IMG/VR virus record: IMGVR_UViG_3300030104_006589
Span: 62,001 to 126,000 of that record
Strand: one strand, 5' to 3'
Length of the DNA stretch: 64,000 nt
Source: an uncultured virus (IMG/VR IMGVR_UViG_3300030104_006589)
Taxonomy: Duplodnaviria > Heunggongvirae > Uroviricota > Caudoviricetes
Part shown: piece by piece, positions 5,108 through 63,155 of the stretch
Layout of the letters: each line of letters begins with the position of its first letter
Position numbering within the stretch: the stretch's first letter is position 1
Program-made: the position numbers and the translations under genes
Notes under the pieces: generated by a model
The model's database searches: none
What the model saw: the letters and a program-made list of their open reading frames with translations, nothing else
What the model was told of the DNA's origin: nothing

Positions 5108-5129
5108 TTATTAATTAGATTTAAGATTA

Positions 5130-5816: not shown

Positions 5817-5846
5817 CGGTTAATTATATATATGCCAAACGTTTTT

Positions 5847-49097: not shown

Positions 49098-49259
49098 TCA
49101 CTGGTTACCTACTACCATAAGGCCAAAATTAGCTGTAGCGTAAGAAATCCAGACTATCCCCCAGCCATAATCTTTTTTCATGAAATATGCGGCCCCCACT
49201 ACTGCATACATGATGCCCGCAATCAAAGGCACATACTTTGTTATATCATCAAGAGTCAT
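49098..49259 (-). CDS. small membrane protein (two hydrophobic segments)
   Basis: MTLDDITKYVPLIAGIMYAVVGAAYF...WGIVWISYATANFGLMVVG. Confidence 0.6.
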   Translation of the reverse strand: MTLDDITKYVPLIAGIMYAVVGAAYFMKKDYGWGIVWISYATANFGLMVVGNQ

Positions 49260-50505
49260 GAGTTTTAAATCTTTCGGGATAGAGACCCTCAAGTTTCTGG
49301 TAATGTAACTTTACTTCATTTAAATCAAGATCACGACTATCCCTGCCCATATTCTCTTTAGCGCAGAGAGGTCTTAAATTACTCCAGTGATTAGGTCCAA
49401 TCTGCTCATCACCTTCGGCTCCTTTAATATAAAAAGGATTAATATGTTTATACTCCTCCCACAAACAAAGAGGAATAAGGTGATCTATATGCCATGCGCC
49501 TTCATGATCTAGATTTGAACCAGCACCATAATTCTTTTCATTCATCCAATCTTCTGACAAATCTTCAAGAAGCTCTACAAGTTGTTTACTAGTAACTTGC
49601 GTCCTTTTGTTCCATAACGATGGGCTTTTTCCCCCAAAAGCAGTTCGTATGTAATGTTTTAATCTATTTCGTATTCTTCTGGCATAGATGTATCTAGGAT
49701 TTTTTTCTAACTCTCTTCTTCTTTTTTTTGCTTCGGGGCTTTTAGCCCTAGCAAGGCAATACTCCTTATTTTCTACATAATATTTCTTAGCTCTTGCCCT
49801 TTCGCAATCTAAACACTCCCATGAATTACCCTGCTTATTGTCTCTGAAATCATCCCAGTTTTTAACTAATCCACACCTTACACAACATCTTTTCTTTTCA
49901 ATTAAATGGTTTCCAAATCTAGGTTCTCCATTCTCTGCAAATCTAACCCAACCTTCTTTATGTAATTCATTTAACCTCTCTTCGCTTAACTCATGTTTCT
50001 TATTTCCCATATAAGATATCTGCCTAACTCCATTAATCATGTCTTGCGGGAGTTTAAGTAAAGCTTCAAAATCTTTCCTTAAGATAAATATAGTTTTTTG
50101 TAAATGGAGCTTCATTCCATCAGGAACACCCATTTCAAACAAAAAATTCCCATTTCTAATTTTTATCCAATCTTTCCCCTTTTTTGCCCTATCTTTCCCT
50201 TTTAAAGTGGTGTTTACAATGCCTTTCTCGGCAAGAATGTCCACCACTTGGTGCATATTTAAAATTTCATCTCTTTTTAATTTGCAGGTATTCCAAAATT
50301 CTTGCTCAAAGTCTTTTGCATATAGCTCTATAGAAACGTGATAAATGAGGCCGTTCCGATGCATCAAGCTTTCGGGCTTATAACAGTCTTCGCAAATGTC
50401 TCTATTTATCTTAAAATTTTGCTCAAACCAAACACCTTCTTGGATCTTCTGTTTGATCAAGAAGCTTTTTCTTTTTTTGTTTTCCCCACATATTATACAA
50501 CTCAT
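49249..50505 (-). CDS. HNH-type endonuclease
   Basis: CVRC...CLDC zinc motif; WHIDHLIPL...NHWSNLRPLCAKEN. Confidence 0.78.
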   Translation of the reverse strand: MSCIICGENKKRKSFLIKQKIQEGVWFEQNFKINRDICEDCYKPESLMHRNGLIYHVSIELYAKDFEQEFWNTCKLKRDEILNMHQVVDILAEKGIVNTTLKGKDRAKKGKDWIKIRNGNFLFEMGVPDGMKLHLQKTIFILRKDFEALLKLPQDMINGVRQISYMGNKKHELSEERLNELHKEGWVRFAENGEPRFGNHLIEKKRCCVRCGLVKNWDDFRDNKQGNSWECLDCERARAKKYYVENKEYCLARAKSPEAKKRRRELEKNPRYIYARRIRNRLKHYIRTAFGGKSPSLWNKRTQVTSKQLVELLEDLSEDWMNEKNYGAGSNLDHEGAWHIDHLIPLCLWEEYKHINPFYIKGAEGDEQIGPNHWSNLRPLCAKENMGRDSRDLDLNEVKLHYQKLEGLYPERFKTHDS

Positions 50506-50795
50506 CCGTTTATTTTTGGGGCATTGGATATTTTTTCAATTTTGTTTATGAGAATTTTTTTGCTTATCTGAGGAATGAGAAATAGGAGGGGGTGTGCTGT
50601 AGCATTTACGTTTAACGGTTCACAAGAACGTCATTGACAGATTGATAAATACCTCCCCCCGCCGCATTAACGCGAAAAACCGCTAAAAATTTTTGAGAAA
50701 TAGGGGGGCTTGTCAAGTGTTTTTTTTACAGAAAAAAAATGTTTTTTTTGTTTTTTTTACTTGCTTTTTCTGTGAAAGTATGTTATAGTTACTAC

Positions 50796-50996
50796 ATGAA
50801 AATTACAGAAGATCAAATCAACAAGTTCGTAGAAGATAATGACATGATGCCGCTTGGCGGCGATATGTTCGAAGATGCTGGCGGTCATGTCTGGCATGAA
50901 GCCAACATCATGGACGAGATCGAAAGATCTCAGCCTCTTAATAACCTTTTCGGTGATGTCGCGGGTGCGCTTAATAAGCTCACCATAATAAAGTGA
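50796..50996 (+). CDS. small early protein
   Basis: MKITEDQINKF...; ATG 6 nt after TATAGT. Confidence 0.75.
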   Translation: MKITEDQINKFVEDNDMMPLGGDMFEDAGGHVWHEANIMDEIERSQPLNNLFGDVAGALNKLTIIK

Positions 50997-51040
50997 AATA
51001 AAATCTTGCATTAAATCAAAATCTAGACTATAGTTACATC

Positions 51041-51247
51041 ATGACTGACAGCGAAAAGATCACCAAACTAATCGAAGCAAATTCAAGACTACGCGGAGAA
51101 ATCTGCGGGGTATCGGGGCAAGTCTCTGGTATGTCAATGTGGTGCAACGATGCCGAGGCATCCGTATGGCTCAAGAAGGTTGAGGGCAGACTAGACGAAG
51201 CTCTCAAGCAAGACGACAAGGCGGTTTCTAAAATCATCTTCGGATAA
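51041..51247 (+). CDS. small early protein (paralog of 53568..53765)
   Basis: Own promoter; shared GVSG..S....W and LDEA motifs. Confidence 0.75.
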   Translation: MTDSEKITKLIEANSRLRGEICGVSGQVSGMSMWCNDAEASVWLKKVEGRLDEALKQDDKAVSKIIFG

Positions 51248-51299
51248 AATAAATCAAAATAATCCTTGCGTTTAACTCAATAACTGGTATACTACTAAC

Positions 51300-51533
51300 A
51301 TGATAAAGCAATTCAAGAATGACAATGGCGAGATCGTTGACTGCGAAGAGATCGCTACCTGTTACCCATCTCATGCATGGTGGGAACTTAACAAGAAGCA
51401 ACGCCAAGAAGCTGCCGACAAGAACAACAACGGCGAACTCGGCAAGAAGGGACGTTTCTACAACTCAACTAATGGAGTTGAGAAGTGGGTAGACACCGAG
51501 GCAAGGGTATGGTGGTCTGAGGACTGCCGATAA
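51300..51533 (+). CDS. small early protein
   Basis: Own promoter, ATG 6 nt after TATACT. Confidence 0.75.
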   Translation: MIKQFKNDNGEIVDCEEIATCYPSHAWWELNKKQRQEAADKNNNGELGKKGRFYNSTNGVEKWVDTEARVWWSEDCR

Positions 51534-51572
51534 TAATCTAACAAAACAAAAAAACAAACTACTACCATCATC

Positions 51573-51815
51573 ATGAAATCATTCCTTAAATCATACATTG
51601 CACACACACAACTTTCTTTACTGCTTTGCAGTATACTAAACCTTTCGCTTGTAGTCATAGCTATCTGGCTAGGACAAGGCGAGGCACTAGCTAACAGCAT
51701 ACGAGGCTGGCACGGTGGCGATGTTCTAACTGTTATGTTTGGGCTTCCGTTAGTGTGGGGCTTCATTAGTGCAGTGTTAGACACAGGCATCAATATCTTT
51801 CATCAGAAATTCTAA
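51573..51815 (+). CDS. small membrane protein
   Basis: Two hydrophobic helices. Confidence 0.65.
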   Translation: MKSFLKSYIAHTQLSLLLCSILNLSLVVIAIWLGQGEALANSIRGWHGGDVLTVMFGLPLVWGFISAVLDTGINIFHQKF

Positions 51816-51828
51816 CAAAACAACAACC

Positions 51829-51948
51829 ATGGACAAGCGAGCACAATCCAAACACCGCAAGCAACTGAAGCGCAACCGCAAGAATAAAATCATTCGGATG
51901 CAGAAGGTTGCCGAGAAGCGCAGAGAAAAACTTCAAAAAACAACTTGA
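51829..51948 (+). CDS. 39-aa highly basic peptide
   Basis: MDKRAQSKHRKQLKRNRKNKIIRMQKVAEKRREKLQKTT*; below the ORF-track cutoff. Confidence 0.55.
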   Translation: MDKRAQSKHRKQLKRNRKNKIIRMQKVAEKRREKLQKTT

Positions 51949-51981
51949 CAGGTAGTAGAGTTAAGAGTAAGTAAAAACCCT

Positions 51982-52061
51982 CGTAACTCGTTGGTCATCA
52001 ACGAGTTACGCAGGGCGGGCGATCCCGCGCTCCGTAAGTCGTTAACAGTCAACGAGTTACA
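51982..52061. repeat. double-palindrome element copy 1
   Basis: CGTAACTCGTTG-GTCAT-CAACGAGTTACG, 22-bp GC spacer, CGTAAGTCGTTA-ACAGT-CAACGAGTTACA. Confidence 0.95.
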
Positions 52062-52141
52062 CAGCTTAACACGCAGAAAAAAAATACAATAAAAACACAA
52101 AAAGAACTTGACTTTTATCTCAGCCTGTGGTATAGTTAGCC

Positions 52142-52369
52142 ATGCTTACTTCATATGACCTTTGTGTTTCCGCTGTCCGTTTCATCCGCTTCGACGTTTC
52201 TAAGGCTCATCGCTACGCGATGCTTGTCGATGCCTTCGATGGCGTTGCTGATGTCGATAATCACACCATTCAAAAGGTGTTGTTGTTGGCATACGATGCC
52301 CGCGATGCGGGTGACGACATCCGCGACTTTCGCGGCACTTGCGAGTTCATCCACAGGATGGCTTGCTAA
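52142..52369 (+). CDS. small early protein (paralog of 53815..54129)
   Basis: Own promoter; DIRDFRGTCE motif. Confidence 0.75.
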   Translation: MLTSYDLCVSAVRFIRFDVSKAHRYAMLVDAFDGVADVDNHTIQKVLLLAYDARDAGDDIRDFRGTCEFIHRMAC

Positions 52370-52426
52370 GTGAAAAAAAACGAAAATAAATCTTGCTTTT
52401 ATCTCAAATTCGACTATACTACTACT

Positions 52427-52720
52427 ATGACAAATCAGGAAGCTTACAACCACGGTTACAACGGCACTCTCACCCTCGACGAGCTTATGGCTCAGTTTGA
52501 GGCTCCCGCCTGTCACGCATACGATGAGCCGCCGCAGTTCTCTGCGTGGCGGTCAGGGGCGCAGGATGCCGCATATGATGCGGAGTCTGATGCCACCGAG
52601 TGCGACATGGAGCCTGATGACTTCATGACTGACGGCGAGGCTGATGCCGATGCCCTCGCCTCCGCTGGCTATGGCACGGATGAGGATTATGGCTTCTATG
52701 GCGACGAGTGTTTCGCGTAA
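52427..52720 (+). CDS. small, very acidic early protein
   Basis: MTNQEAYNHG...DADALASAGYGTDEDYG; ATG 6 nt after TATACT. Confidence 0.78.
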   Translation: MTNQEAYNHGYNGTLTLDELMAQFEAPACHAYDEPPQFSAWRSGAQDAAYDAESDATECDMEPDDFMTDGEADADALASAGYGTDEDYGFYGDECFA

Positions 52721-52727
52721 GAAGCGC

Positions 52728-52807
52728 CGTAACTACCTAAGCCTCAACAAGTTACGGAGCGCGGGCCAGCCCGCCCCGCGTAAGTCGTTGACACTCAACA
52801 GGTTACG
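52728..52807. repeat. double-palindrome element copy 2
   Basis: CGTAACTACCTA-AGCCT-CAACAAGTTACG, 22-bp spacer, CGTAAGTCGTTG-ACACT-CAACAGGTTACG. Confidence 0.95.
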
Positions 52808-52922
52808 CAAGTTCTTACAAAAAACCTTGTCAAGTAAAAAGTGAAAAAAAATCACAATAAAAAAAGAAAAAAAAAGATAAAAAGCCCTTGACTTTTGTTT
52901 GATTGTGTGGTATAGTTACCAC

Positions 52923-53192
52923 ATGAAAATGATTAACTTTCCTACTCTTATCGCTGATGCCCTTCGTAACGCTCCACGCTACGCGCATGAGGATGCCCCT
53001 CTGTTGGTCGCTCAACTTGTGCGCGACTTCCCTATCATTCGCCCCGATGTAGTCGAAGAGGTTGTGAGCATGGCTTGCGACATGATCGGCAACTCTAACT
53101 TTCGGGCTAACCTTGAGCTTGAGCGCAACCCCGATGTGATGAGCATCATGCACATCTGCATGATAAAGCACAACGGTAGCGTTGAGTGCTAA
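52923..53192 (+). CDS. small early protein
   Basis: MKMINFPTL...; own promoter. Confidence 0.72.
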   Translation: MKMINFPTLIADALRNAPRYAHEDAPLLVAQLVRDFPIIRPDVVEEVVSMACDMIGNSNFRANLELERNPDVMSIMHICMIKHNGSVEC

Positions 53193-53254
53193 AAAAAGAA
53201 AAATAAATCATCTTTTCTCTTTACTTTACCCTAAATCTATCGTATACTACCAGC

Positions 53255-53506
53255 ATGACAGTTAAGAAAGACCGCCCCTACTACGTTATCCTTACAGGTG
53301 AGATCGCCAAGCCCGTTGTGTTTGGTGGTAGCCACAACCTGCGTTTTAGCGAGCGCATAATGAAAAACCCGCTCGCCTTCCCCAAGGGAGCATGGAAGAC
53401 CATGATCACTTTCCCTAACGAGGAAGCCGCTTATGCATCAGAGTATAAGCAGGGTCTTGAGATCGCAAACGGTCGCTTTGAATGGCGACCTCTCAGCAGG
53501 GGATAA
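53255..53506 (+). CDS. small early protein
   Basis: Own promoter, ATG 6 nt after TATACT. Confidence 0.72.
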   Translation: MTVKKDRPYYVILTGEIAKPVVFGGSHNLRFSERIMKNPLAFPKGAWKTMITFPNEEAAYASEYKQGLEIANGRFEWRPLSRG

Positions 53507-53567
53507 AAAAAGAAAAAAAAGCATCTTTTCTCTTGCAATAATTCAAATCATAGAGTATAGTTACATC

Positions 53568-53765
53568 ATGACAGAACAAGAACAAATCGACCAACTCAAA
53601 GACCAAATCTTTAAACTCCAAATGGTAATGAAAGGAGTTTCAGGCATCGCCTCCGCAGGTGCTTCATGGCAGGAAACCTCTGGCTTTAACAAGCAGACCT
53701 TCAAAAGAATCGAGAGCCAACTTGATGAAGCAGTCGAGGAAATCAACATGACCCCGACCCCATAA
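53568..53765 (+). CDS. small early protein (paralog of 51041..51247)
   Basis: MTEQEQIDQL...GVSGIASAGASW...LDEA; own promoter. Confidence 0.75.
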   Translation: MTEQEQIDQLKDQIFKLQMVMKGVSGIASAGASWQETSGFNKQTFKRIESQLDEAVEEINMTPTP

Positions 53766-53814
53766 AACCAAAAATAAATCTTGCGTTTATCTCAATCTCT
53801 ACTATACTAAAATC

Positions 53815-54129
53815 ATGACAGTTAAAAAACCAGCATTCATCTACTCCGTAATCGTTGAAGTTCTCAAGGCGGCTCGCACTGGTGAGCAGTCGGCTCATAT
53901 AGAACTAGAAACAGTTGACAGCTACACAGCCGCCGTCATTCTCGATATGTGTAACTCCGCAACCGCTGACGCTAGCGATATCCACGACTTCCGTGGAGTC
54001 TGCGAGAACATACTGAAAACAGTCTTGCGCTTGCGTAGGGACACCCGCCCAGACATTCACCCGCTCTGCCGTGCCAATCTCATGAAAGAGGACTTGATGA
54101 TCTCCACCGACGACCTGACCGTGGCGTAA
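53815..54129 (+). CDS. small early protein (paralog of 52142..52369)
   Basis: DIHDFRGVCE motif; own promoter. Confidence 0.75.
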   Translation: MTVKKPAFIYSVIVEVLKAARTGEQSAHIELETVDSYTAAVILDMCNSATADASDIHDFRGVCENILKTVLRLRRDTRPDIHPLCRANLMKEDLMISTDDLTVA

Positions 54130-54155
54130 AAAAAAAGAAAAAAACCGCTTGACAG

Positions 54156-54235
54156 CGTAACTCCTTGACGCTTAAGGACTTACGCAGCGCGGGCCTCCCC
54201 GCGCCGCGTAACTCGTTGATACTCAACGACTTACG
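54156..54235. repeat. double-palindrome element copy 3
   Basis: CGTAACTCCTTG-ACGCT-TAAGGACTTACG, 22-bp spacer, CGTAACTCGTTG-ATACT-CAACGACTTACG. Confidence 0.95.
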
Positions 54236-54336
54236 ATACTTACTACTCTATTTACCTATTTATATTCTGACCTGCGACCTGCAAAAAAAAACAAAAAAAG
54301 CCTTGCGTTTCCTCCAGCCTGTGGTATAGTTACACC

Positions 54337-54489
54337 ATGACAATCGAAGAGCTAGCAAAGCAAGACCCCCGCGAAATGTTCACCCACGACCCCCGTGAGC
54401 TTCAGGAGTTGCTCGCGGAGGTTCACGATGAGTTGGGGGATCGCCACCCCAGTTTCTCCACCGACAACGACCAACCTACTACCGACTAA
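54337..54489 (+). CDS. 50-aa acidic peptide (duplicate of 55823..55975)
   Basis: MTIEELAKQDPREMFTHDPRELQELLAEVHDELGDRHPSFSTDNDQPTTD*. Confidence 0.8.
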   Translation: MTIEELAKQDPREMFTHDPRELQELLAEVHDELGDRHPSFSTDNDQPTTD

Positions 54490-54493
54490 AATC

Positions 54494-54733
54494 ATGAGCC
54501 AGAACAACATCTATAAGATGACAGAAATCGAGCACCAGCAGAACCCGCCTTCGTGCGGGGGCAACTGGGAGTATGGGTCTGTGACCCGTGTGTGTATGTC
54601 GCGCTCGCCCAAGGTGGCGTTTGCGATGAGTGGCGACATCACCGTGCGCTATGAGGGCGTGGACGGTGTGCCTATCATGCGCGAGCGGGTGTTCACCAAG
54701 GGCGGAAAAGAGATCTGGCGCAAATACGACTAG
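54494..54733 (+). CDS. small early protein
   Basis: MSQNNIYKMTEIEH...WRKYD*, begins just after the previous stop. Confidence 0.7.
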   Translation: MSQNNIYKMTEIEHQQNPPSCGGNWEYGSVTRVCMSRSPKVAFAMSGDITVRYEGVDGVPIMRERVFTKGGKEIWRKYD

Positions 54734-54749
54734 GCCGCGTAATAACCCG

Positions 54750-54829
54750 CGTAACTCACTAAGCGTCAACGAGTTACGCAGCGCGGGCCAGCCCCTCCTC
54801 CGTAAGTCGTTGATACTCAACGACTTATA
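54750..54829. repeat. double-palindrome element copy 4
   Basis: CGTAACTCACTA-AGCGT-CAACGAGTTACG, 22-bp spacer, CGTAAGTCGTTG-ATACT-CAACGACTTATA. Confidence 0.95.
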
Positions 54830-54933
54830 CTAGTTTACCTTTCTATTTGTCTATTTATATCCTGACCTACAGTCTAGAAAAAAAAAGAATAAAAAATGCT
54901 TGCAAGTTTCTAAATCTGTGGTATACTACCCTT

Positions 54934-55149
54934 ATGATAAATCGAAAAGACCAAATCCACGCCACACTTTACAACGCCGCCATTGACGGTGCTTTCTCTC
55001 TCTCTGTCGAAGATGGAGAGATTGTTGCTACTGACCTCTTGTGGGCTAACGCCGCCGACAAACCACCTAAGTTTGTTATCCGCTTTGTAGGTAGTGACAT
55101 CTCTGATGTAGATGTCGAGATTGATAACGGAGTTAGAATGGGAGCATAG
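54934..55149 (+). CDS. small early protein
   Basis: MINRKDQIHATL...; own promoter. Confidence 0.72.
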   Translation: MINRKDQIHATLYNAAIDGAFSLSVEDGEIVATDLLWANAADKPPKFVIRFVGSDISDVDVEIDNGVRMGA

Positions 55150-55151
55150 TT

Positions 55152-55457
55152 ATGAAAACAGACAATAAGCAAAAAGAAGAAGTTACTTTGGAGCGCAGGA
55201 TCTGTGATCGCTGTAGAGATGTTGATGGATTAACCTTCGGTTACATCGGTAACTTTGAACGCTGGGGCGATGACCGAAAGCTTTTCATCTGGATTGATGA
55301 AGACGACATGAGAGAGAGGAATGGTAATCACGCTAATCTCTGGGAGTGTGTTGCTCGCGATCTTGATGTGAAATCTGCCTGTCTTGCTTTTGCGGCAATC
55401 AAAGGTTTTCAAATGGGTAAAACTTATGCTGATATCAAAATCAACAAGAAGTTCTAA
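55152..55457 (+). CDS. hypothetical protein
   Basis: 101-aa ORF coupled to the previous gene. Confidence 0.7.
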   Translation: MKTDNKQKEEVTLERRICDRCRDVDGLTFGYIGNFERWGDDRKLFIWIDEDDMRERNGNHANLWECVARDLDVKSACLAFAAIKGFQMGKTYADIKINKKF

Positions 55458-55524
55458 TGATTGAAATAATAATAGCACCAATCTTTTCTTTTCTTTTCCC
55501 TATAATAATAGCTATAATAATCTT

Positions 55525-55689
55525 ATGCATGAACCGATAACAGAACTACAAAGAGAACTAGGCGACCTTGAGAGAAACATCAGGTTTCTTCAACCAGATA
55601 AAATGAGGTGGACTCATAACCGCAAAGCACTAATTGATCAATTAGACTGGATAAAAGAACTAGCTCGCAGAATAAGGGACTCTAAGTAA
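55525..55689 (+). CDS. 54-aa hypothetical peptide
   Basis: MHEPITELQRELGDLERNIRFLQ...RIRDSK*; ATG 6 nt after TATAAT; stop inside element copy 5. Confidence 0.6.
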   Translation: MHEPITELQRELGDLERNIRFLQPDKMRWTHNRKALIDQLDWIKELARRIRDSK

Positions 55690-55759
55690 CTGATACTTAA
55701 CGACTTACAGGAGCGCCCCCGCCCCGCGCCCGTAACTCGTTGAGCGTCAACAACTTACG
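55681..55759. repeat. double-palindrome element copy 5
   Basis: TCTAAGTAACTG-ATACT-TAACGACTTACA, 21-bp spacer, CGTAACTCGTTG-AGCGT-CAACAACTTACG. Confidence 0.93.
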
Positions 55760-55822
55760 AAGAATCGTAAAAAAACATAAAAAAGCTCTTGCGATTTCTC
55801 CAGCCTGTGGTATAGTTCCACT

Positions 55823-55975
55823 ATGACAATCGACGAGCTAGCAAAGCAAGATCCCCGCGAGATTTTCGACCACGACCCTCGCGAAATTCAAGAACTCCTC
55901 GCGGAAGTCCACGCGGATCTGGGCGACCGCGATCCACGTTTCTCCACCGACGAAGATCAACTCCCTACTGACTAA
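55823..55975 (+). CDS. 50-aa acidic peptide (duplicate of 54337..54489)
   Basis: MTIDELAKQDPREIFDHDPREIQELLAEVHADLGDRDPRFSTDEDQLPTD*. Confidence 0.8.
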   Translation: MTIDELAKQDPREIFDHDPREIQELLAEVHADLGDRDPRFSTDEDQLPTD

Positions 55976-55980
55976 AAATT

Positions 55981-56196
55981 ATGGAATGGAAACCTACACC
56001 TACGCCAAAAGCTCCCGCTATCGAGGGCTTTCTCACTGCCATTAACGGCATTCACCGCTGCGATGCTATCGAGCGGAAGACTTGCGCCACTTGTGGCGCG
56101 AGTGTCACCCTCGACTCGTTCAAGGACGAGTTGAGCCTGAAGGAGTTCCACATTTCGGCCATGTGCCAGACTTGTCAGGACTCGGTTTTCGGGTAA
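55981..56196 (+). CDS. small zinc-binding protein
   Basis: CATCG...SFKDELSLKEFHISAMCQTCQDSVFG. Confidence 0.75.
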   Translation: MEWKPTPTPKAPAIEGFLTAINGIHRCDAIERKTCATCGASVTLDSFKDELSLKEFHISAMCQTCQDSVFG

Positions 56197-56200
56197 CCCG

Positions 56201-56279
56201 CATAACTTGCTAAGTCTTAAGGACTTACGCAAGCGCGGCGGGGGCGCAGCCGTAACTCGTTGAGAATCAACGAGTTATG
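56201..56279. repeat. double-palindrome element copy 6
   Basis: CATAACTTGCTA-AGTCT-TAAGGACTTACG, 21-bp spacer, CGTAACTCGTTG-AGAAT-CAACGAGTTATG. Confidence 0.93.
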
Positions 56280-56464
56280 AAGGAAGTGAAAAAAAATGAA
56301 TTTTAATGCAGAAAGTGCTTGCTTATTTGTCGAAATGCTGTATAATGTGGCTCGTAACAAGTTAACCAACCTACACACCAACCATGCCACTGAACTTCCT
56401 TAGAAAGAAAAAAAAGACAATAAATTCACTTGCAATCCCTGTGAATTCGATTATAGTTAAGCCT

Positions 56465-56755
56465 ATGCAAATACAACGCCCAACACAAGACAGAGAGCTT
56501 CGGCTCTTCCCTCAAAACCCCGTCCATCTCGCATCTAACCTTACAGGTAAAACTGTTCGGTATGAGAACTTTCACAACAAGTCCTCCGTTGCTGATCCCA
56601 AGGTTCGCACCTTCAAGATCAAATCCATCGAGGATGTTTGCAAGTCCGAGGCAAGCGGTAGCAGATATGTAACCGCAAAAGTCCAAGACGTTGATGACGG
56701 AGGGACTGAGAAATACAGAAATCTTATCCTTGACGGGATTGAGGTGATCGTGTAG
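56465..56755 (+). CDS. small early protein
   Basis: MQIQRPTQDREL...; promoter TTGCAA-16-TATAGT just upstream. Confidence 0.7.
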   Translation: MQIQRPTQDRELRLFPQNPVHLASNLTGKTVRYENFHNKSSVADPKVRTFKIKSIEDVCKSEASGSRYVTAKVQDVDDGGTEKYRNLILDGIEVIV

Positions 56756-56865
56756 GTTACCCCACAACAGGGGAGCGAGGGGAGGAAAGCCCCAACGGAG
56801 TGCTACCACCCTCGTTCCCCAACTTTTTCCTTTACAAATAATAAACAACATACTAAATTAGCATC

Positions 56866-57087
56866 ATGTCTAAATCATCTGAATCACTTCGCATTGAAGT
56901 CAAAACACAGGAACAAGCTGCATTGCTTAACTATGCACTTGGAATCACCCATCAACACCTTTCAAGCCGTCTTGAGGAGGTCGAAGATGACAAGCTCGAC
57001 ACCTTCATGGATAACATTAAGTGGACACGCAAACACGCAAAGTCTCTTAATGACAAGTTTTCTCTTAGTGAGTTACAGAATTCCTAG
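56866..57087 (+). CDS. small early protein
   Basis: 73 aa; promoter TTTACA-17-TAAATT. Confidence 0.7.
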   Translation: MSKSSESLRIEVKTQEQAALLNYALGITHQHLSSRLEEVEDDKLDTFMDNIKWTRKHAKSLNDKFSLSELQNS

Positions 57088-57094
57088 CTTTCTA

Positions 57095-57480
57095 GAAAAG
57101 GTCGCGCATTGGCGGGGGCAGAACCGCAAAGCGATACAGGATAACCTGAAGCCCTTCGACCTCCAACAAACAAAATTGTTGGTTAAAAAGCCAATCACTG
57201 CAATAGGGTGCAGCCTAAAATCCCCTAATAACAACAACCCCGTGAATTGTCTGTGACTAGCGGGGGGCTAAACACACAGACGCTCCCAGTGGTGGGCAAT
57301 ACCGCTAGGTGGTAACAGTGACCAGACCCTTAATTGACTGGCACTCGTCAACAAGCCGACTCTCTCCCGCCACGCTTTACTAGTCAGCCTCTGACGGGAG
57401 GGAGATACCACTTTCTTTGCTGATGCGTAGTAGCCCCGCTCCCCTTTTTGTTTGCTTATTGTTTTAAGGGGGGCGGGGTT
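57095..57480 (+). ncRNA. candidate structured ncRNA with pseudoknots
   Basis: GC-rich intergenic stretch with many complementary segments (see findings); directly upstream of a tRNA. Confidence 0.5.
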
Positions 57481-57488
57481 TCGCTTTG

Positions 57489-57564
57489 GGGAGTGTAGCT
57501 CAATGGTCAGAGCACACGACTCATAATCGTTAGGTTGCGGGTTCGAATCCCGCCGCTCCCACCA
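57489..57564 (+). tRNA. tRNA with CAT anticodon (Ile2 or elongator Met)
   Basis: GGGAGTG/CGCTCCC acceptor, anticodon loop CTCATAA, GGTTCGAATCC T-arm, encoded CCA; 76 nt. Confidence 0.92.
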
Positions 57565-57641
57565 CAACTCATTGATACTGAAGGACTTAGGGCTGCGCCC
57601 CCGCCGCGCAGCCGTAACTCGTTGAGAATCAACGAGTTATG
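57563..57641. repeat. double-palindrome element copy 7 (abuts tRNA CCA)
   Basis: CACAACTCATTG-ATACT-GAAGGACTTAGG, 21-bp spacer, CGTAACTCGTTG-AGAAT-CAACGAGTTATG. Confidence 0.93.
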
Positions 57642-57746
57642 AAGGAAAATCATGCACACTTTCCTAGCCCTGTCAAGCAGAAAAAAAAATAAAAGAAAAA
57701 GCAAAAAAAGGGTTGCACAAAATGAAATCTGTGGTATAGTTCTTGC

Positions 57747-58511
57747 ATGTTGATACTCGCTAAAAACAAAGTCGAGTCCGAGCAGTTGGCCGAGGTGCCG
57801 ACTCCTTCCGCTACGGACACTCACACTCCAATTCCTCACGCGCTTCTCGCTGATCGCACTCGCAACGTCATTGCGACCGCTGGTCTTGAGATCACTCAAG
57901 AGGAACACGCGCTTGCGCGTAATGGCCTTCGCTACTTCGGAGGGTTCGCCCTGAAGGGACAAGGCATCGAGGGCGATGATCGCCAGTTGGTGCTTGGTCT
58001 TCGCAACGCACACGATAAGTCCTTCGCGGCTTCCGTCTGCATCGGCAACCAAATGATGGTTTGCGAAAACCTTTGCTTCTCTTCGGATGTGAAGCTCGCT
58101 CGCCGTCACACGGTGAATATCCTTCGCGACCTTAACACGGTTCTTTCTTCCGCTGTTAGTCGCGTTGTGTCTCACTGGCACGACATGGGCAAGCGCATCG
58201 CCTCCTACAAGGAGACGGAGCTTTCCAAGGAACGTGCTTCCGATCTGGTCGTTGACCTTGCGGAGATGGGTGCGTTTCCCGCTCGCTCCGTTTACAAGGC
58301 GGTGCAAGAGTTCCGCAACCCTCGCCATGAGGAGTTCAAGGGCGGTTCGCTCTGGACGCTTTACAACGGGGTGACCGAACACCTCAAGGGTGGCGACCTT
58401 TCCAAGTTGCCACAGCGCACGATGACCACTCAGTCTATCTTCGACAAGATCGCGGGACACGCTCCTGAGATCGTCGAAGTTGAAGCCGAGGCGGTCGCGC
58501 TTCCCGCTTAA
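57747..58511 (+). CDS. DUF932-like protein
   Basis: TDTHTPIPH, LGLRNAHDKSF, MVCENLCF, RRHT, SLWTLYNGVTE. Confidence 0.8.
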   Translation: MLILAKNKVESEQLAEVPTPSATDTHTPIPHALLADRTRNVIATAGLEITQEEHALARNGLRYFGGFALKGQGIEGDDRQLVLGLRNAHDKSFAASVCIGNQMMVCENLCFSSDVKLARRHTVNILRDLNTVLSSAVSRVVSHWHDMGKRIASYKETELSKERASDLVVDLAEMGAFPARSVYKAVQEFRNPRHEEFKGGSLWTLYNGVTEHLKGGDLSKLPQRTMTTQSIFDKIAGHAPEIVEVEAEAVALPA

Positions 58512-58540
58512 CCCATAACTGGCCCTGCCGTTAACCTACC

Positions 58541-58572
58541 AAGCCCGTCCCCGAAAGGGGGCGGGTTTTTTT
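58541..58572 (+). terminator. intrinsic terminator
   Basis: GCCCGTCCCC-GAAA-GGGGGCGGGT followed by a T run. Confidence 0.85.
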
Positions 58573-58599
58573 CTTGACATGGGTTTTAGTAAGAAGTGT

Positions 58600-58678
58600 T
58601 GTAAGTCGTTGATACTCAAGGACTTACGGGCGCGGGGCGGGGGCGCAGCTATAAGTCCTTAAGCGTCAAGGAGTTACG
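58600..58678. repeat. double-palindrome element copy 8
   Basis: TGTAAGTCGTTG-ATACT-CAAGGACTTACG, 21-bp spacer, TATAAGTCCTTA-AGCGT-CAAGGAGTTACG. Confidence 0.95.
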
Positions 58679-58742
58679 CATAATCGTCATTTTTTAATCA
58701 TTTAAATGTTGACTGGCTCGGTATTTGTGATATATTTGGCGC

Positions 58743-58997
58743 ATGGCTAACTCCTACAGCATCCAAAGAACTGATACAAATAGAATCCCCGCCCCGTTTG
58801 ACTTTACGTTTGAGTGGGATAATGGAACAGAAAGAACATTTATAGTTGTTTCATTGCATGGCGCAAAGGCACTAGCCGAAACATTTAGAAACTTCGGTTA
58901 CGAAGAGGAAGAAGGTAGTGTTAGGTTTGCTTCAGATGCGCGAACTTTGGAAAGGCTTTCACCGATTGCGAAGTTGGCGAAGGGGAATAAAAATTAA
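58743..58997 (+). CDS. small early protein
   Basis: 84 aa; own promoter. Confidence 0.72.
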   Translation: MANSYSIQRTDTNRIPAPFDFTFEWDNGTERTFIVVSLHGAKALAETFRNFGYEEEEGSVRFASDARTLERLSPIAKLAKGNKN

Positions 58998-59037
58998 TTT
59001 TAATTGACAACACCCGCTTTTGTGGTATACTACGCAC

Positions 59038-59724
59038 ATGTCAAAGCTCCTTAACTCTGGAAACTATAAAACCCGCAAGGGCGAAAAATACGGTTGGAAG
59101 ACCTATGGCTTGCACCTTGCACCATTTAACTTATCAGGAAAAAATGTTTGCTCTTCTGCTACTGTTGGTTGCTCTACTGCTTGTCTCAATACTGCTGGCC
59201 GTGGAATCATGCATTCCGTTCAAGATGCCCGAATTAAAAAGACGAGAAGGTTTTTCGAAGATCGGGATGGATTCCTATCGCAGTTATACAAAGAAATCCA
59301 AAGCTCGGTTAAAAGCGCAACGCGAAAGGAATTAAAGAGTTGTTTCCGCTTGAATCTCACAAGCGATCTCCCGTGGGAGGGGTTGGTTGTAAAATACTTT
59401 CCAAGGCTACAGTTTTACGACTATACCAAACACCTAAAAAGATTCGTTAGGTTTCTGGAGAGTAAGTTCCCGTCCAACTATCACCTCACATACTCCCGCA
59501 GTGAAGAGACTCCTGATACGCTAGTAAAGAGTTTGTGTGCAAGTGGTGGCAATGTCGCCGTGGTTTTTCGCAATCACCTTCCCGAAAAATGGCTTGGACT
59601 TGAAGTGATCGACGGGGATGATTCCGACTTGCGCTTTGAGGATGGCAAGGGTAAGATTGTTGGGTTACTTGAAAAAGGACTCGCTAAAAAAGACAAGACA
59701 GGATTTGTTGTTGAACCAGAATAA
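59038..59724 (+). CDS. phage gp88-like protein (Cys-cluster, radical-SAM-related fold)
   Basis: NVCSSATVGCSTACLNTAGRG, RLNLTSDLPWE, FYDYTK, NYHLTYSRSE, IDGDDSDLRF. Confidence 0.78.
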   Translation: MSKLLNSGNYKTRKGEKYGWKTYGLHLAPFNLSGKNVCSSATVGCSTACLNTAGRGIMHSVQDARIKKTRRFFEDRDGFLSQLYKEIQSSVKSATRKELKSCFRLNLTSDLPWEGLVVKYFPRLQFYDYTKHLKRFVRFLESKFPSNYHLTYSRSEETPDTLVKSLCASGGNVAVVFRNHLPEKWLGLEVIDGDDSDLRFEDGKGKIVGLLEKGLAKKDKTGFVVEPE

Positions 59725-59728
59725 ACCA

Positions 59729-59887
59729 ATGAAAGAAGAACTCCAAGAAATACTAGACGACCACAGGTCACAGATAATTGATATGCTCAAGGAAGATGCA
59801 CAAGAGGCTCTCGTTGTAGATGTCGAAGCGAACCTCGACCGCATGGTAACCGAAATAAACGAATTGTTAGGCTCTAGTTACGACTAG
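59729..59887 (+). CDS. 52-aa acidic peptide
   Basis: MKEELQEILDDHRSQ...GSSYD*. Confidence 0.62.
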   Translation: MKEELQEILDDHRSQIIDMLKEDAQEALVVDVEANLDRMVTEINELLGSSYD

Positions 59888-59890
59888 AGC

Positions 59891-59969
59891 CGTAACTCAC
59901 TCAGGGTCAAGGACTTAGGGCTGCGGCCCCGCCGCGCAGCCGTAACTCGTTGAGGTTCAACGAGTTATG
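59891..59969. repeat. double-palindrome element copy 9
   Basis: CGTAACTCACTC-AGGGT-CAAGGACTTAGG, 21-bp spacer, CGTAACTCGTTG-AGGTT-CAACGAGTTATG. Confidence 0.93.
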
Positions 59970-60039
59970 CATGAATAAAAAATGCATTTTTAATAATAAA
60001 AAAGGTTGCATAAGTCTGAGCGTGTGTTATACTACCCCT

Positions 60040-60186
60040 ATGGAAAAAATAACAGCAAACGATGTTTTACACTGGCATGGCTCAGACCATGACATTAAAG
60101 AATTAGCTCAAGTGATCGCACACATAGTGAATGGTGATTACGATATAGAGCTAGCCAAGCAGGAAATTGAAATGTTAAAAGATTAA
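60040..60186 (+). CDS. 48-aa early peptide
   Basis: MEKITANDVLHWHG...; ATG 6 nt after TATACT. Confidence 0.68.
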   Translation: MEKITANDVLHWHGSDHDIKELAQVIAHIVNGDYDIELAKQEIEMLKD

Positions 60187-60191
60187 GTAAA

Positions 60192-60566
60192 ATGGGACTA
60201 GATCAATACGCAAAAAAAGTAAAGAGAGAATTCAATCATGAGACTCTCACCGAGACAATCACAAAAACTGAAATCGCTTACTGGCGCAAACACAATGCGC
60301 TAGAAGGTTTGATGGCAGGGCTTTACCGAGAGAAGACAGGAGATGAAGGGGAGTTTAATTGTAAAACTCTTACTCTTGATTCTAACGACCTAGACAATCT
60401 TGAAAAGGTTGTAAAGGGTGGGGATCTTCCTGAGACAGTAGGTTTCTTTTTTGGTGATTGCACCAAGGACAACGAGGAATACAAAGAAATAGACCTTGAG
60501 TTTATAGCCAAGGCTAGGAAATGTCTTGCTAATGGGTTTGATGTAGAATATACTTCTTGGTGGTAA
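60192..60566 (+). CDS. conserved phage hypothetical protein
   Basis: MGLDQYA...EIAYWRKHNAL...GFFFG...YTSWW, a recurring phage family motif. Confidence 0.8.
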   Translation: MGLDQYAKKVKREFNHETLTETITKTEIAYWRKHNALEGLMAGLYREKTGDEGEFNCKTLTLDSNDLDNLEKVVKGGDLPETVGFFFGDCTKDNEEYKEIDLEFIAKARKCLANGFDVEYTSWW

Positions 60567-60567
60567 G

Positions 60568-60744
60568 ATGGAAGAACGACCCTACAAAGTATACCTGAGA
60601 GAGATCCACTGGCAGGAAGCTGTCGTGGATGCCGTGAGCCGAGCCGATGCCATTCAGAAAGTATTGGATGGTGACGGTCAATACGGGAACGGCACTAGAT
60701 ACGAAGAAACCTGCGAGGACGGGCATAGAGTTGAAGAGATATGA
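60568..60744 (+). CDS. 58-aa hypothetical peptide
   Basis: MEERPYKVYLREIHWQEAVVDAVSRADAIQKV...; ATGA overlap with the next gene. Confidence 0.65.
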   Translation: MEERPYKVYLREIHWQEAVVDAVSRADAIQKVLDGDGQYGNGTRYEETCEDGHRVEEI

Positions 60745-60956
60745 ATATAATCAGACACATAAGCCCCGATAATAGATTTTTATATAATATAAAATACAAT
60801 GATGACTACACTCTTGATACTATCGGCATACATCTTCTTTTACCCGAAGGCGTATGGAGTCCTGCGGTTTCTCCAGAAATGTTCCCGTCATCACAATTGG
60901 AATCTATCAAAGAAATGTGTTGCGAGCTAATCCGTCGAGTTATATCCTCTGAGTAG
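60741..60956 (+). CDS. hypothetical protein
   Basis: 71-aa ORF coupled to the previous gene. Confidence 0.6.
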   Translation: MNIIRHISPDNRFLYNIKYNDDYTLDTIGIHLLLPEGVWSPAVSPEMFPSSQLESIKEMCCELIRRVISSE

Positions 60957-61026
60957 GATATAAAAAAATGCAGGAAATTTGGATAATATTTTTAGTTTTA
61001 GTAACCTTAACAATTTTTTCATTAGG

Positions 61027-61245
61027 ATGGCTATAAAAGGAAGACCAGCAGGAACAGGAGGCATCTATAAAAAAAGAGAAACCCACAATAAGCAAGTTTC
61101 ACATAGCGACCGACAAACGCAATACATAACCCACCTTTCTAAAAGCGTTGGTGAGGCTTGCGACAGGTGGCTAGATAAGAAGGGACTGAAGGGTAAAAGC
61201 TGGAAAAAGCAGAACGACGAAATGTTTAAGAAGAAAGTTTCATAG
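61027..61245 (+). CDS. basic hypothetical protein
   Basis: MAIKGRPAG...KKKVS*. Confidence 0.6.
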   Translation: MAIKGRPAGTGGIYKKRETHNKQVSHSDRQTQYITHLSKSVGEACDRWLDKKGLKGKSWKKQNDEMFKKKVS

Positions 61246-61362
61246 TGAGGAGTATGACTCTGGTTAGGAATAGAGTGTAAAGAGAACTTACAACGGGGTG
61301 TATAGGGTTTCTGACGATTGCCCTTTGGTCGCCCTCATTGAACACCTAGCCAGAGTCCCACT
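61244..61362. ncRNA. candidate small structured RNA
   Basis: GACTCTGGTTAGG (61256-61268) pairs with CCTAGCCAGAGTC (61345-61357); AGTG/CACT termini. Confidence 0.4.
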
Positions 61363-61365
61363 AAA

Positions 61366-61521
61366 ATGAAAAAGAAGAAAACAAAACTGCCGACTAACTC
61401 CCTAGAGGGACGGAATATGGTGCGTCACCAGATGCCACCACCGACCACTAGTCACACGGATAAAAAGAAGCAGTTAAATAAGAAAGGTTGTCGTAAGTCG
61501 TTGGGCCTCAACGACTTATAG
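61366..61521 (+). CDS. 51-aa basic peptide
   Basis: MKKKKTKLPTNSLEGRNMVRHQMPPPTTSHTDKKK...; ends inside element copy 10. Confidence 0.5.
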   Translation: MKKKKTKLPTNSLEGRNMVRHQMPPPTTSHTDKKKQLNKKGCRKSLGLNDL

Positions 61522-61570
61522 CTTCGCGGCGGCTTTCGAGTCGTAAGTCCCTAAGTATCAATGAGTTACA
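61492..61570. repeat. double-palindrome element copy 10
   Basis: CGTAAGTCGTTG-GGCCT-CAACGACTTATA, 21-bp spacer, CGTAAGTCCCTA-AGTAT-CAATGAGTTACA. Confidence 0.92.
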
Positions 61571-61647
61571 GATGATGATTTAAGGATAAAAAAAACCGCA
61601 CTTTCGTGCGGTTAGGTTATTTGATTATTAAGGCTTTAACCTACAAC

Positions 61648-62172
61648 CTAAGCTTGGATTTTATATGGACTGCTATCAGTGTTATTAACTTGAGTTGCTA
61701 CAACCTTGAGCTTACCGAATGTATGTGCCTTCTTACCTCTGATCCACCTAGTAGACCAATCTTTAATCTTCGGCTTGCGGTGGTATGTGCTATATACTTC
61801 ACCTGTATCTTTATGCACTACTTTATATTTGCCTTCTATTGTATTAACATTGCCACCTCTATCCTTGGGCTTGTAGCACCGCTCAGGTCGTGCGCCCACC
61901 TTGACGCACATCCGCTTCCACACAGCATCGTGTCCATGCCCCCGCCCCGTAAGGGCGTGGGCAATCTCATGGAGAACAACGTCTTTACTTTCTTCGATTG
62001 TATTAATCAGAGCAAGCTTCTTTGTAACACCAATTTCTCTTTTATGGTATCTGCACTGACCATATCTACGGACAGCTTTATTGTCCCAAACAAACTTCCA
62101 ATTTTCTTCTATTAGCCCCCACTTCTCCATTTGCTCCATAGCAAACTGATGTATTTCTATTAGTTTATTCAT
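61648..62172 (-). CDS. SprT-like zinc metalloprotease
   Basis: RRYGQC, VVLHEIAHAL...GHDAVWKRMCVKVGA.PERC. Confidence 0.88.
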   Translation of the reverse strand: MNKLIEIHQFAMEQMEKWGLIEENWKFVWDNKAVRRYGQCRYHKREIGVTKKLALINTIEESKDVVLHEIAHALTGRGHGHDAVWKRMCVKVGARPERCYKPKDRGGNVNTIEGKYKVVHKDTGEVYSTYHRKPKIKDWSTRWIRGKKAHTFGKLKVVATQVNNTDSSPYKIQA

Positions 62173-62534: not shown

Positions 62535-62762
62535 GCGAGTAATATACCACCACCTTCGGTGGTGTCAACAATTAAAATGAATTAAAATGCCAGCAAATCA
62601 AATAAAATATAAAATGAAATTACAAAAAACAACAAATATAAAAATGCTTCTATCCTGCTCATGCTTATTAAGGTTTTTCGCCGTAAACTGGGCTTTTTTT
62701 TATGTCGATTAAATGTTGAATTATCGACACGATTTATTTATATGTATACTATATACACATAT

Positions 62763-62883
62763 ATTATTAAGCAAAATATCCGACAACCTACATTATTAAG
62801 CCAAATCAAAATAAACCTGCATTATTAGGGCAAAAATTAGACAACCTAGAATCAACTAAAATCAACCAAAATCAACTAAAATT
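62763..62883. repeat. three 29-bp imperfect direct repeats followed by three 10-bp repeats
   Basis: ATTATTA.G..AAA.......AACCT units at 62763, 62792, 62821; AATCAACYAA x3 from 62850. Confidence 0.75.
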
Positions 62884-63155
62884 AAGTTTTATTTAGTGCA
62901 ATTGCCTAGAGTCATGGGGAATTCCCTCGGGGAGAGAAGGTTCTTATTTGTATTTTTACAGAGAGGGGTATAGGCACACACCATTTCTTTTATTACTGTA
63001 ATTACTATGAAACCCTTTATTTTATAGTATTCTCTTTTGTATTTACCCCTATGTATTTCTTATAGCCCTCTATTGTATTCTATTCTTTTTAATTCTATTT
63101 TAATATTATTTAATAGTTTATATTAATTTAAATGTATTCTATTATAAATTATATA

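Follow-up and report, generated by a model that had tools for sequence, protein, structure and literature searches.

Why does a tailed phage carry ten copies of one palindromic repeat among its early genes, and what could these copies do there? The window analysed here, a whole stretch of 64,000 nucleotides (IMG/VR record IMGVR_UViG_3300030104_006589, positions 62,001 to 126,000; positions below count from the first letter of the window), comes from a large uncultured tailed phage, siphovirus-like, marine and unrelated to T4, whose early region is divided by 79-80 bp elements of two palindromes each. The sequence-only reading of this window had proposed that the elements are recombination sites of an integron-like or PeSL-like (promoter/stem-loop) array, or else tandem binding sites for a dimer-of-dimers protein acting on early DNA. 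We found that the half-site sequence of the palindromes is conserved while the pairing of their arms is mostly at chance level, and therefore consider it likely that the elements are protein sites on double-stranded DNA and not hairpins. As to the binder and its role, a host protein of the IHF/HU type (integration host factor and its relatives), with the elements serving as boundaries and upstream promoter parts and recombination arising as a by-product, is the explanation we would put first, with belief and doubt about evenly balanced.

Each element consists of a 29-bp palindrome A, a GC-rich spacer of 21-22 bp and a 29-bp palindrome B, and all ten copies were located at the starts first reported and measured as first described. 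Element 1 lies at 51982..52061 (A 51982-52010, GC spacer, B 52033-52061), element 2 at 52728..52807 (A 52728-52756, with a degenerate inner arm, B 52779-52807), element 3 at 54156..54235 (A 54156-54184, B 54207-54235), element 4 at 54750..54829 (A 54750-54778, B 54801-54829), element 5 at 55681..55759 (A 55681-55709, B 55731-55759), element 6 at 56201..56279 (A 56201-56229, B 56251-56279), element 7 at 57563..57641 (B 57613-57641), element 8 at 58600..58678 (A 58600-58628, B 58650-58678), element 9 at 59891..59969 (A 59891-59919, B 59941-59969) and element 10 at 61492..61570 (A 61492-61520, B 61542-61570). The consensus CGTAASTCGTTG-N5-CAACGASTTACG, with up to 3 mismatches, had 13 matches in the window, all within 51982-61520, and 0 in 100 dinucleotide-preserving shuffles. 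An nhmmer profile of the ten copies found exactly ten places in the window (E<=1e-3) and nothing in its first 50 kb, from which the elements had been said to be missing; each element was matched on both strands because the whole element is quasi-palindromic. The palindromes are imperfect, the upstream A being more degenerate than the downstream B. From the start of A to the start of B, copies 1-4 measure 51 bp and copies 5-10 measure 50 bp, and repeat grouping also gave copies 1-4 and copies 5-10 as two sub-families.

All ten copies stand at or just after the end of a gene, a tRNA or a terminator, in agreement with the sequence-only reading, and in the window elements occur only at the ends of transcription units, on the 3' side. 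The distance from stop codon to element start is 4-34 nt in six copies (1-4, 6 and 9). Copies 5 and 10 overlap a stop codon (A of element 5 that of a 54-aa open reading frame (ORF), while A of element 10 encodes the C-terminus and stop of a 51-aa ORF), copy 7 lies directly behind tRNA-Met (CAT; 57489-57564, + strand) with its A abutting the tRNA 3' end, and copy 8 lies 32 nt past a canonical intrinsic terminator (58541..58568, + strand, 12-bp stem and T-run) placed between the DUF932 gene and the element. At gene joins that are free of elements, the next promoter overlaps directly with the end of the preceding gene. Element 10 has no promoter after it; a bidirectional intrinsic terminator (61594..61613) follows and closes the early region. 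Canonical + strand terminators occur only at these two sites beside elements 8 and 10, no + strand terminator was called on an element and a T-tail is missing from all ten; terminators and elements are distinct.

Behind copies 1-9 we found the A-tracts and sigma70-type promoters that had been claimed, with a common layout of A-tract, TTGAC or TTGC, 16-17 nt, a TG-extended TATAGT or TATACT, and an ATG 5-7 nt past the -10. They lie on the + strand at 52108..52136 after element 1 (TTGACT-17-TATAGT, TG-extended, ATG 5 nt past -10; 61 bp from the centre of B to the start of the -35), 52888..52916 after element 2 (95 bp), 54303..54330 after element 3 (TTGCGT-16-TATAGT; 82 bp), 54900..54927 after element 4 (85 bp), 55789..55816 after element 5 (44 bp), 57713..57740 after element 7 (86 bp; this promoter drives the DUF932 gene, 57747-58511), 58709..58736 after element 8 (45 bp, as given by script) and 60006..60033 after element 9 (TTGCAT-16-TATACT; 51 bp). 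Element 6 is followed by a promoter-like site at 56319..56346 (+ strand, TTGCTT-16-TATAAT) without an ATG behind it, and by a second promoter at 56430-56457 (+ strand). The proposal that the elements bound modules with promoters of their own thus stood as regards the promoters and was refined as regards the modules: there are about 18 closely similar early promoters for 10 elements, and a unit between two elements has 1-4 of them. In at least 15 early genes (50760-60050, + strand) the ATG comes 5-7 nt after the -10 hexamer, e.g. TATAGTTACACCATG, and because the ATG is just this far behind the -10, the early mRNAs are probably leaderless. In internal genes of early units a Shine-Dalgarno sequence is mostly missing. 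A sigma54 promoter motif was considered and rejected, with 28 matches vs 25.9 expected and none tied to elements.

Across the family of elements described below, the distance from the centre of the proximal palindrome to the -35 has a period of 10-10.5 bp (89 pairs, R=0.37, rough p=4e-6), which persisted after sequence clustering (57 representatives, R=0.32, rough p=3e-3). Within 2 bp of a multiple of 10.5 lie 35 of the 57 representatives, vs 38% expected, and periods of 7, 8, 12 and 13 bp gave no signal. Such helical phasing is expected of a bending site acting on the promoter, not of a terminator or a recombination site.

When IMG/VR was scanned with a 26-nt core pattern, at least 176 stretches carried it, from about 100 contigs of 4-177 kb among the matches listed, so that the profile and pattern scan first suggested for relatives and bacterial genomes did recover the element in phages (and the single palindrome in bacteria, see below). 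Many of the element-bearing contigs are relatives of the window, with 65-91% DNA identity in a few early genes. In the related record G002, rated 100% complete, elements cluster at 24.0-27.0 kb and 140.3-143.0 kb; in G003 they cluster at 25.5-32.4 kb and in G001 at the contig start. In a family alignment of 285 unique elements with complete flanks from phage loci, the layout of palindrome, GC-rich spacer and palindrome is kept and the spacer is 83% GC. Moreover, the motif is kept across phages with almost completely different early genes, while DUF932, GP88 and a 96-aa ORF (56465-56755 in the window) travel with the elements; this last ORF matched only viral hypothetical proteins in the Protein Atlas. 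We found no description of the element in the literature searched, and as far as the retrieved text shows, the match to the palindrome 12-mers in PMC6050381 is a PCR primer and the other matches concern unrelated subjects.

The palindromes behave as sequences and not as stems. In a set of 394 unique palindromes, mirrored bases form Watson-Crick pairs just as often as expected for independent arms at 9 of 11 position pairs, and slightly more often at 6/24 (0.57 vs 0.50) and 9/21 (0.64 vs 0.54). In an alignment without forced bases, all four half-sites have C or G at position 6/24 (A/T in 2%, 3%, 4% and 9%), C and G have about equal shares, and C:C plus G:G make up 169 of 394; such a choice between C and G, made separately by every half-site, agrees with recognition of double-stranded DNA and disagrees with pairing. 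In the same 394 palindromes, departures from pairing by a single step are more often of the A:C type (304) than of the G:U type (212), which is the opposite of what an RNA stem tolerates. Pairing between palindrome A and palindrome B was not found, being at or below expectation. Rfam matched two tRNAs only in the window and none of the elements. Contigs from two metatranscriptome libraries cross element 6 (56133-56821) and element 7 (57412-57674), which speaks weakly against efficient termination, as DNA carry-over is possible and contigs cannot show ends.

What kind of protein might read such a site? The half-site is CG-TAA-STCG-TTGA, followed by T (45%) and a central W (80%). The IHF consensus is TAAnnnnTTGATW / WATCAAnnnnTTR with a footprint of 33 bp in the retrieved text of PMC10380432, and by our own count the W/A of this consensus is central. 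The half-site matches the consensus, so that each palindrome can be read as two inverted IHF-type cores with the central W in common; TCAA and TTA are present at 91-100% with the spacing of the consensus, and the base preceding W is A or T at 39-45%. The 29-bp conserved stretch is of the order of the footprint, and the element differs from an IHF site in conserving further bases and in being fully symmetric, a symmetry that would fit a homodimer better than the heterodimer of E. coli. The TT and AA steps of the palindrome are 9 bp apart, the same distance as between the two kinks that IHF/HU proteins introduce. In Table 2 of PMC6907758, in the parsed form at hand, the IHF consensus appears under H-NS and the H-NS motif under IHF, and this table was not used.

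Indeed, the single palindrome is also present in bacteria. In species-representative bacterial genomes the 26-nt pattern occurs in 45 stretches, vs about 0.3 by chance (an estimate), and its carriers are Fibrobacter, Verrucomicrobia including Akkermansia, Gemmatimonadota, Latescibacterota, Bacteroidota, Spirochaetes, Lentisphaerae and Planctomycetes, with no Firmicutes, Actinobacteria or Cyanobacteria among these 26-nt matches. Six of the stretches, on four contigs of metagenome-assembled genomes (MAGs), are evidently phage contigs binned into MAGs and carry double elements; the four different taxa of these MAGs are an unreliable clue to the host. With up to 3 mismatches, 10-14 sites each were found in two Fibrobacter genomes, Akkermansia and a Verrucomicrobiae genome, vs 0-1 in a reversed control. 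The palindrome lies 108 bp upstream of dnaA in Akkermansia and exactly between parA and parB in two Gemmatimonadaceae genomes, positions that are classically held by centromere or architectural sites; further Akkermansia sites include one upstream of argS. Other contexts are after mnmG, in the gap between a tRNA or tmRNA and an integrase gene, beside plasmid RepA and beside housekeeping genes. In a 1552-bp insertion sequence (IS) of Verrucomicrobiae with a DDE_Tnp_1 transposase, present in at least 6 copies, the palindrome lies 33 bp upstream of the -35 of the transposase promoter, a context in which seven copies were counted; an analogy with the IHF site at the end of an IS such as IS10 was rejected, the motif being 203 bp inside the IS. 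The 42 bacterial sites with ORFs on both sides (14 divergent, 25 tandem, 3 convergent, homologous loci included) are mildly biased to promoter-bearing intergenic regions. In Akkermansia a second palindrome resembling repetitive extragenic palindromic (REP) sequences, TGCATT-N3-AATGCA, usually lies 5-25 nt from the 26-nt palindrome, and this composite intergenic repeat of two palindromes seems undescribed; it recalls the REP-IHF mosaics of E. coli as these appear in the retrieved text of PMC3333891.

As to the source of the binder, no HU/IHF gene and no ParB_N domain was found in the three related records G001-G003, so that a phage-encoded HU/IHF and a ParB/parS or KorB-like spreading system, the latter prompted by the parA-parB context, were both rejected. 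No DNA-binding family was detected among the early ORFs of the window. Because the relatives are without HU/IHF or ParB and the early ORFs without a DNA-binding family, a host protein is the simpler source. In one Fibrobacter genome an HU gene is near a 3-mismatch site, which lies 140 bp downstream of the gene, and this was taken as coincidence.

The element can accordingly be pictured as a candidate module on double-stranded DNA, in which a stiff GC-rich core of 21-22 bp would hold apart two 29-bp sites, each to be bound by a dimeric protein that bends DNA; the likeliest such protein is a host nucleoid protein of the IHF/HU type. Such a module would stand at the 3' end of one early unit with its proximal site whole helical turns from the next -35, in front of a promoter that would be host-type, A-tract-assisted and leaderless. 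Bound and bent, the module may act as upstream promoter architecture, wrapping DNA towards RNA polymerase, and it may also form a boundary that insulates neighbouring strongly transcribed units. Present ten times, the 80-bp repeat would in addition provide homology for ordinary recombination, as the conserved promoters would too, without a dedicated recombinase, and gain, loss and swapping of cassettes would be by-products of this homology.

Several observations weigh against this explanation. The spacing between palindrome centres is 50 bp in only 117 of 220 copies, with other classes at 41-42, 48, 51-53 and 58-60 bp; because these spacings form no helical series, a rigid dimer-of-dimers is disfavoured, so that of the earlier proposal the tandem sites for a dimeric protein on early DNA are favoured by the conservation of the double-stranded sequence and the rigid arrangement is argued against. 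The phasing p-values are rough, with related sequences and promoters called by regular expression. The IHF consensus is that of E. coli, the match was made after the fact, and the element conserves extra bases outside the consensus (CGA inside the N4, CG at the ends). Near-exact copies of the palindrome (up to 1 mismatch) occur in only 5 of 201 sampled Verrucomicrobiota genomes. Folding is not wholly silent either: symmetric co-variation is in excess at 3 of 16 pairs (A 11/29, 0.60 vs 0.48; A 14/26, 0.56 vs 0.44; B 64/76, 0.73 vs 0.67) and absent at B 61/79 (0.44 vs 0.43), the GC spacer folds at -10.4 kcal/mol vs -8.9 for shuffled spacers (better in 64% of copies), and the spacers of some relatives are genuine terminator hairpins, T-run included. 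A minor contribution of hairpins or cruciforms, or correction from arm to arm during replication, may account for the co-variation.

How far, then, do the elements take part in the shuffling of genes? Gene order among relatives is strongly mosaic. The DUF932 gene has elements on both sides in every map that covers both sides, two cassettes have homologues that trade places between two contigs, one 124-aa gene occupies four different places among relatives, and the counterpart of the window's last early gene stands before DUF932 in two contigs. We counted 67 adjacent pairs of window-gene homologues from 25 contigs yielding a pair (43 were labelled). Among pairs with an element between them 28 of 36 junctions were novel, vs 18 of 31 without an element (odds ratio about 2.5, the events being non-independent), and junctions as in the window numbered 8 with and 13 without an element. 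Breakpoints are therefore not element-specific, as novel junctions are nearly as common without an element; module order among relatives, which had been named as a test, is indeed reshuffled, but with breakpoints also away from the elements. The closest relative (85-91% identity) runs colinear with the window over 57.6-62.2 kb, apart from five indels of gene size; two of these abut elements 8 and 9 within a few bases and the rest fall at promoter/ATG or gene-gene junctions.

Some observations hint at exchange between elements. Palindrome A of element 3 is the exact reverse complement of part of B of element 8 over 28 nt, with unrelated flanks, and the element of the closest relative at the position of element 8 matches at 57 of 80 positions, no nearer than paralogues, although its flanks are 85-91% identical, whereas its orthologue of element 9 is clear (72 of 80). 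Metagenome contigs also gave joints that end at elements, e.g. 54236->54839 (in two DNA runs), 54827->58609 and 61503->61604; these were not counted as recombination because their sides are 20-37 nt of repeated sequence, and contig ends at elements and A-tracts are assembly breaks. In keeping with the earlier statement that the window encodes no site-specific recombinase, neither Phage_integrase (PF00589) nor Resolvase was found among its 44 ORFs of at least 150 aa, and the search of further sequence for these two domains was likewise negative in G001-G003, one of them rated 100% complete. The RAYT/Y1 transposase (PF01797) was found neither in G002 or G003 nor in Akkermansia or a second Fibrobacter genome; one Fibrobacter genome has five Y1 transposase genes. 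Judged from these comparisons, the early region is hyperplastic in the sense used for PeSL cassettes, and both the 80-bp elements and the 45-65-bp promoters would offer portable homology.

Among the other explanations, operators of an unrecognised phage regulator, an early or a virion protein that would shut off or order early transcription as a roadblock, stoperator or phi29 p4/p6-like system, seem rather improbable to us. The sites do behave as double-stranded DNA sites, they are confined to early regions in the window and its relatives, the early ORFans could hide a DNA binder, and DUF932, GP88 and the 96-aa ORF are early genes that travel with them. A phage-specific protein, however, leaves the palindrome beside core genes in several bacterial phyla unexplained, no helix-turn-helix, HU or ParB family was detected in the window or the complete relative, and the motif is kept though the early genes differ almost completely between phages. 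That the elements act as RNA, their three 3' hairpins forming a terminator or attenuator, an RNase III/E site or a 3' stabiliser in the manner of the PeSL stem-loop, is improbable in a higher degree. Their place at the 3' ends of units would suit this, as would palindromes and many GC spacers that can fold, the spacers of some relatives with GC hairpin, tetraloop-like loop and T-run, the weak co-variation within palindromes at 2-3 positions, and an orientation relative to genes that is the same in 44 cases and opposite in 13 (51 ambiguous). Yet on average about 2.6 of 13 stem pairs are non-Watson-Crick and most positions pair at chance, A:C mismatches exceed G:U, the T-tail is absent while elements 8 and 10 have distinct canonical terminators next to them, contigs from RNA libraries extend across elements 6 and 7 (subject to DNA carry-over), no Rfam family matches, and hairpins do not explain the helical phasing with the promoter.

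Still smaller is the chance of a dedicated cassette-exchange system, integron-like or new, with the elements as sites of an unrecognised recombinase or structure-specific nuclease, which we regard as very unlikely. The mosaic gene order and the element-flanked DUF932 cassette, the inverted 28-nt copy of element 3 A in element 8 B, the paralogue-like counterpart of element 8 in the closest relative and the genes for an endonuclease VII-like protein and an ERCC4 nuclease near the early region argue for it; the absence of tyrosine/serine recombinases and Y1 transposases from the window ORFs of at least 150 aa and the relatives, the novel junctions without an element, the mere two of five indels at elements and the unreliable metagenome joints argue against it. 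The proposal of integron-like or tyrosine-recombinase sites is accordingly not supported: no integrase or resolvase was found in the window ORFs of at least 150 aa or the three relatives, the cassettes have their own promoters, and sequence is conserved rather than structure. A slim possibility, marginally less remote, is protein-guided exchange without a tyrosine or serine recombinase, in which the site-binding dimer would pair elements, the palindromes would be extruded or cut by endonuclease VII-like or ERCC4-type nucleases, and cassettes would be swapped, inverted or lost; it is kept because cassette order is permuted, the DUF932 cassette has elements at both borders in every map that covers both sides, and inverted halves of elements have passed between distant copies. 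Selfish repeats of the REPIN, BIME (bacterial interspersed mosaic element) or MITE (miniature inverted-repeat transposable element) kind, spread by RAYT or another transposase, are hardly credible: paired inverted palindromes in intergenic DNA, the Akkermansia palindrome beside a second, REP-like one and the five Y1 transposase genes of one Fibrobacter genome recall them, but the lack of A-B pairing excludes a REPIN-type long hairpin, the GTAG or CGTC tag is absent, the complete relative, Akkermansia and the second Fibrobacter genome have no Y1 transposase, and the elements keep to early regions, in phase with promoters.

Compared with known systems, the elements are closest in context to the PeSL cassettes of T4-type phages, which according to the retrieved parts of PMC2839356 and PMC4122927 unite a core rich in GC with an AT-rich tract and a strong early promoter of the sigma70 type. 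Both are composite intergenic repeats between small ORFan genes, in a hyperplastic ORFan region where relatives differ by insertion, deletion and replacement, and both have a sigma70-type early promoter with an AT-rich upstream tract. In the present phage, which is unrelated to T4, two long palindromes, conserved in sequence and not behaving as stems, enclose the GC core instead; the core has no T-tail, and separate terminators are present. The idea of a PeSL-like array thus held for the context (GC core, A-tract, sigma70 early promoter, ORFans, hyperplastic region), whereas the breakpoints are not element-specific. The E. coli BIME-1 (RIB/RIP) has the order REP, IHF site, REP and a proposed role as topological insulator, in the retrieved text of PMC3333891; like our element it is a mosaic repeat at the 3' ends of transcription units made of GC-rich palindromic DNA and IHF-type sites, but here the order is inverted (IHF-like site, GC core, IHF-like site), GTAG-tagged REP and RAYT are absent, and the repeat is in a phage and phased with promoters. 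Integron attC sites resemble the elements as imperfect inverted repeats at the borders of gene cassettes, and differ in that no integrase was found here, the cassettes carry their own promoters, and sequence rather than structure is conserved with a fixed geometry instead of a variable length. The elements are also unlike REPIN/RAYT systems, as their two palindromes do not pair and PF01797 is absent in G002 and G003, and unlike intrinsic terminators in lacking a directly following T-run on the + strand. The stoperators of L5-type mycobacteriophages repeat a single protein site many times over in short intergenic stretches; they are short and asymmetric, are bound by the phage repressor and belong to temperate phages. 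The elements are similar in being many copies of one putative protein site in short intergenic phage regions, and unlike them are long, symmetric and paired and occur also in bacterial chromosomes. We would therefore describe the element as a novel form of PeSL-type cassettes and BIME-type mosaics, whose link to an as yet uncharacterised DNA-binding protein of bacteria can be tested.

If the host-protein explanation is true, a large group of uncultured phages, widespread in marine, freshwater and soil habitats, would build the region for host takeover from a standard part: two sites for a DNA-bending protein of the host, placed on either side of a GC clamp and lying in helical register with the promoter that follows. 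A design based on protein sites would then be added to the promoter/stem-loop cassettes of T4-type phages, and it would offer a testable model for how dense, very strong promoters are kept from interfering. The palindrome in culturable Akkermansia and Fibrobacter, and beside dnaA, parAB, integrase and transposase genes, would give a handle on a sequence-specific nucleoid protein in phyla that have no characterised one, and the bacterial copies could hint at phage host range.

As for the phage itself, the window has 44 ORFs of at least 150 aa, and its genes include terminase, ribonucleotide reductase and PhoH. A tape-measure protein of 2404 aa (22763-29977, - strand) implies a very long tail. 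Megablast with window 51900-56400 had no match in cultured phages and the terminase gave only distant tblastn matches, below 30% identity (Clostridium, Bacillus and Lactococcus phages), so that a cultured relative at the DNA level is absent. The window stretch was found in marine metagenomes of several studies, with up to 0.93 of the sampled words present. A block of 14 kb (1-13800, - strand) is devoted to sugar-nucleotide and glycosyltransferase genes, with GDP-mannose dehydratase, two epimerases, an aminotransferase, a radical SAM/SPASM enzyme and at least 5 glycosyltransferases, a fucosyltransferase among them, which is an unusual size for a phage.

The early region (about 50.7-61.6 kb, + strand) holds about 30 small ORFs, nearly all without a Pfam or PHROG function, and 50000-62000 has a G+C content of 47-48% vs 33-40% in most of the window. 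An endonuclease VII-like gene (49249-50505, - strand, 418 aa) directly adjoins it, and the ERCC4-type nuclease gene, whose product has an N-terminal C2H2 zinc finger, lies at 44343-45365 (- strand). In many relatives, regions that bear elements show synteny with the block that runs from PhoH to the endonuclease VII-like gene. Three pairs of early ORFs are paralogous (54337-54489 and 55823-55975; 51041-51247 and 53568-53765; 52142-52369 and 53815-54129), and because each carries its own promoter, promoter-ORF units have evidently been duplicated inside the early region. A GC-rich non-coding stretch of 400 nt (57088-57490), between a 73-aa ORF and tRNA-Met, folds slightly better than its shuffles (z -2.2), is covered by contigs of an RNA library and has no Rfam match. 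Finally, an AT-rich non-coding region (62750-62890), between the early region and an HNH gene with tRNA-Leu, contains iteron-like direct repeats, three AATCAAC(T/C)AAA units with 10-bp spacing and ATTATTAAGC units with 29/58-bp spacing, and may be a replication origin.

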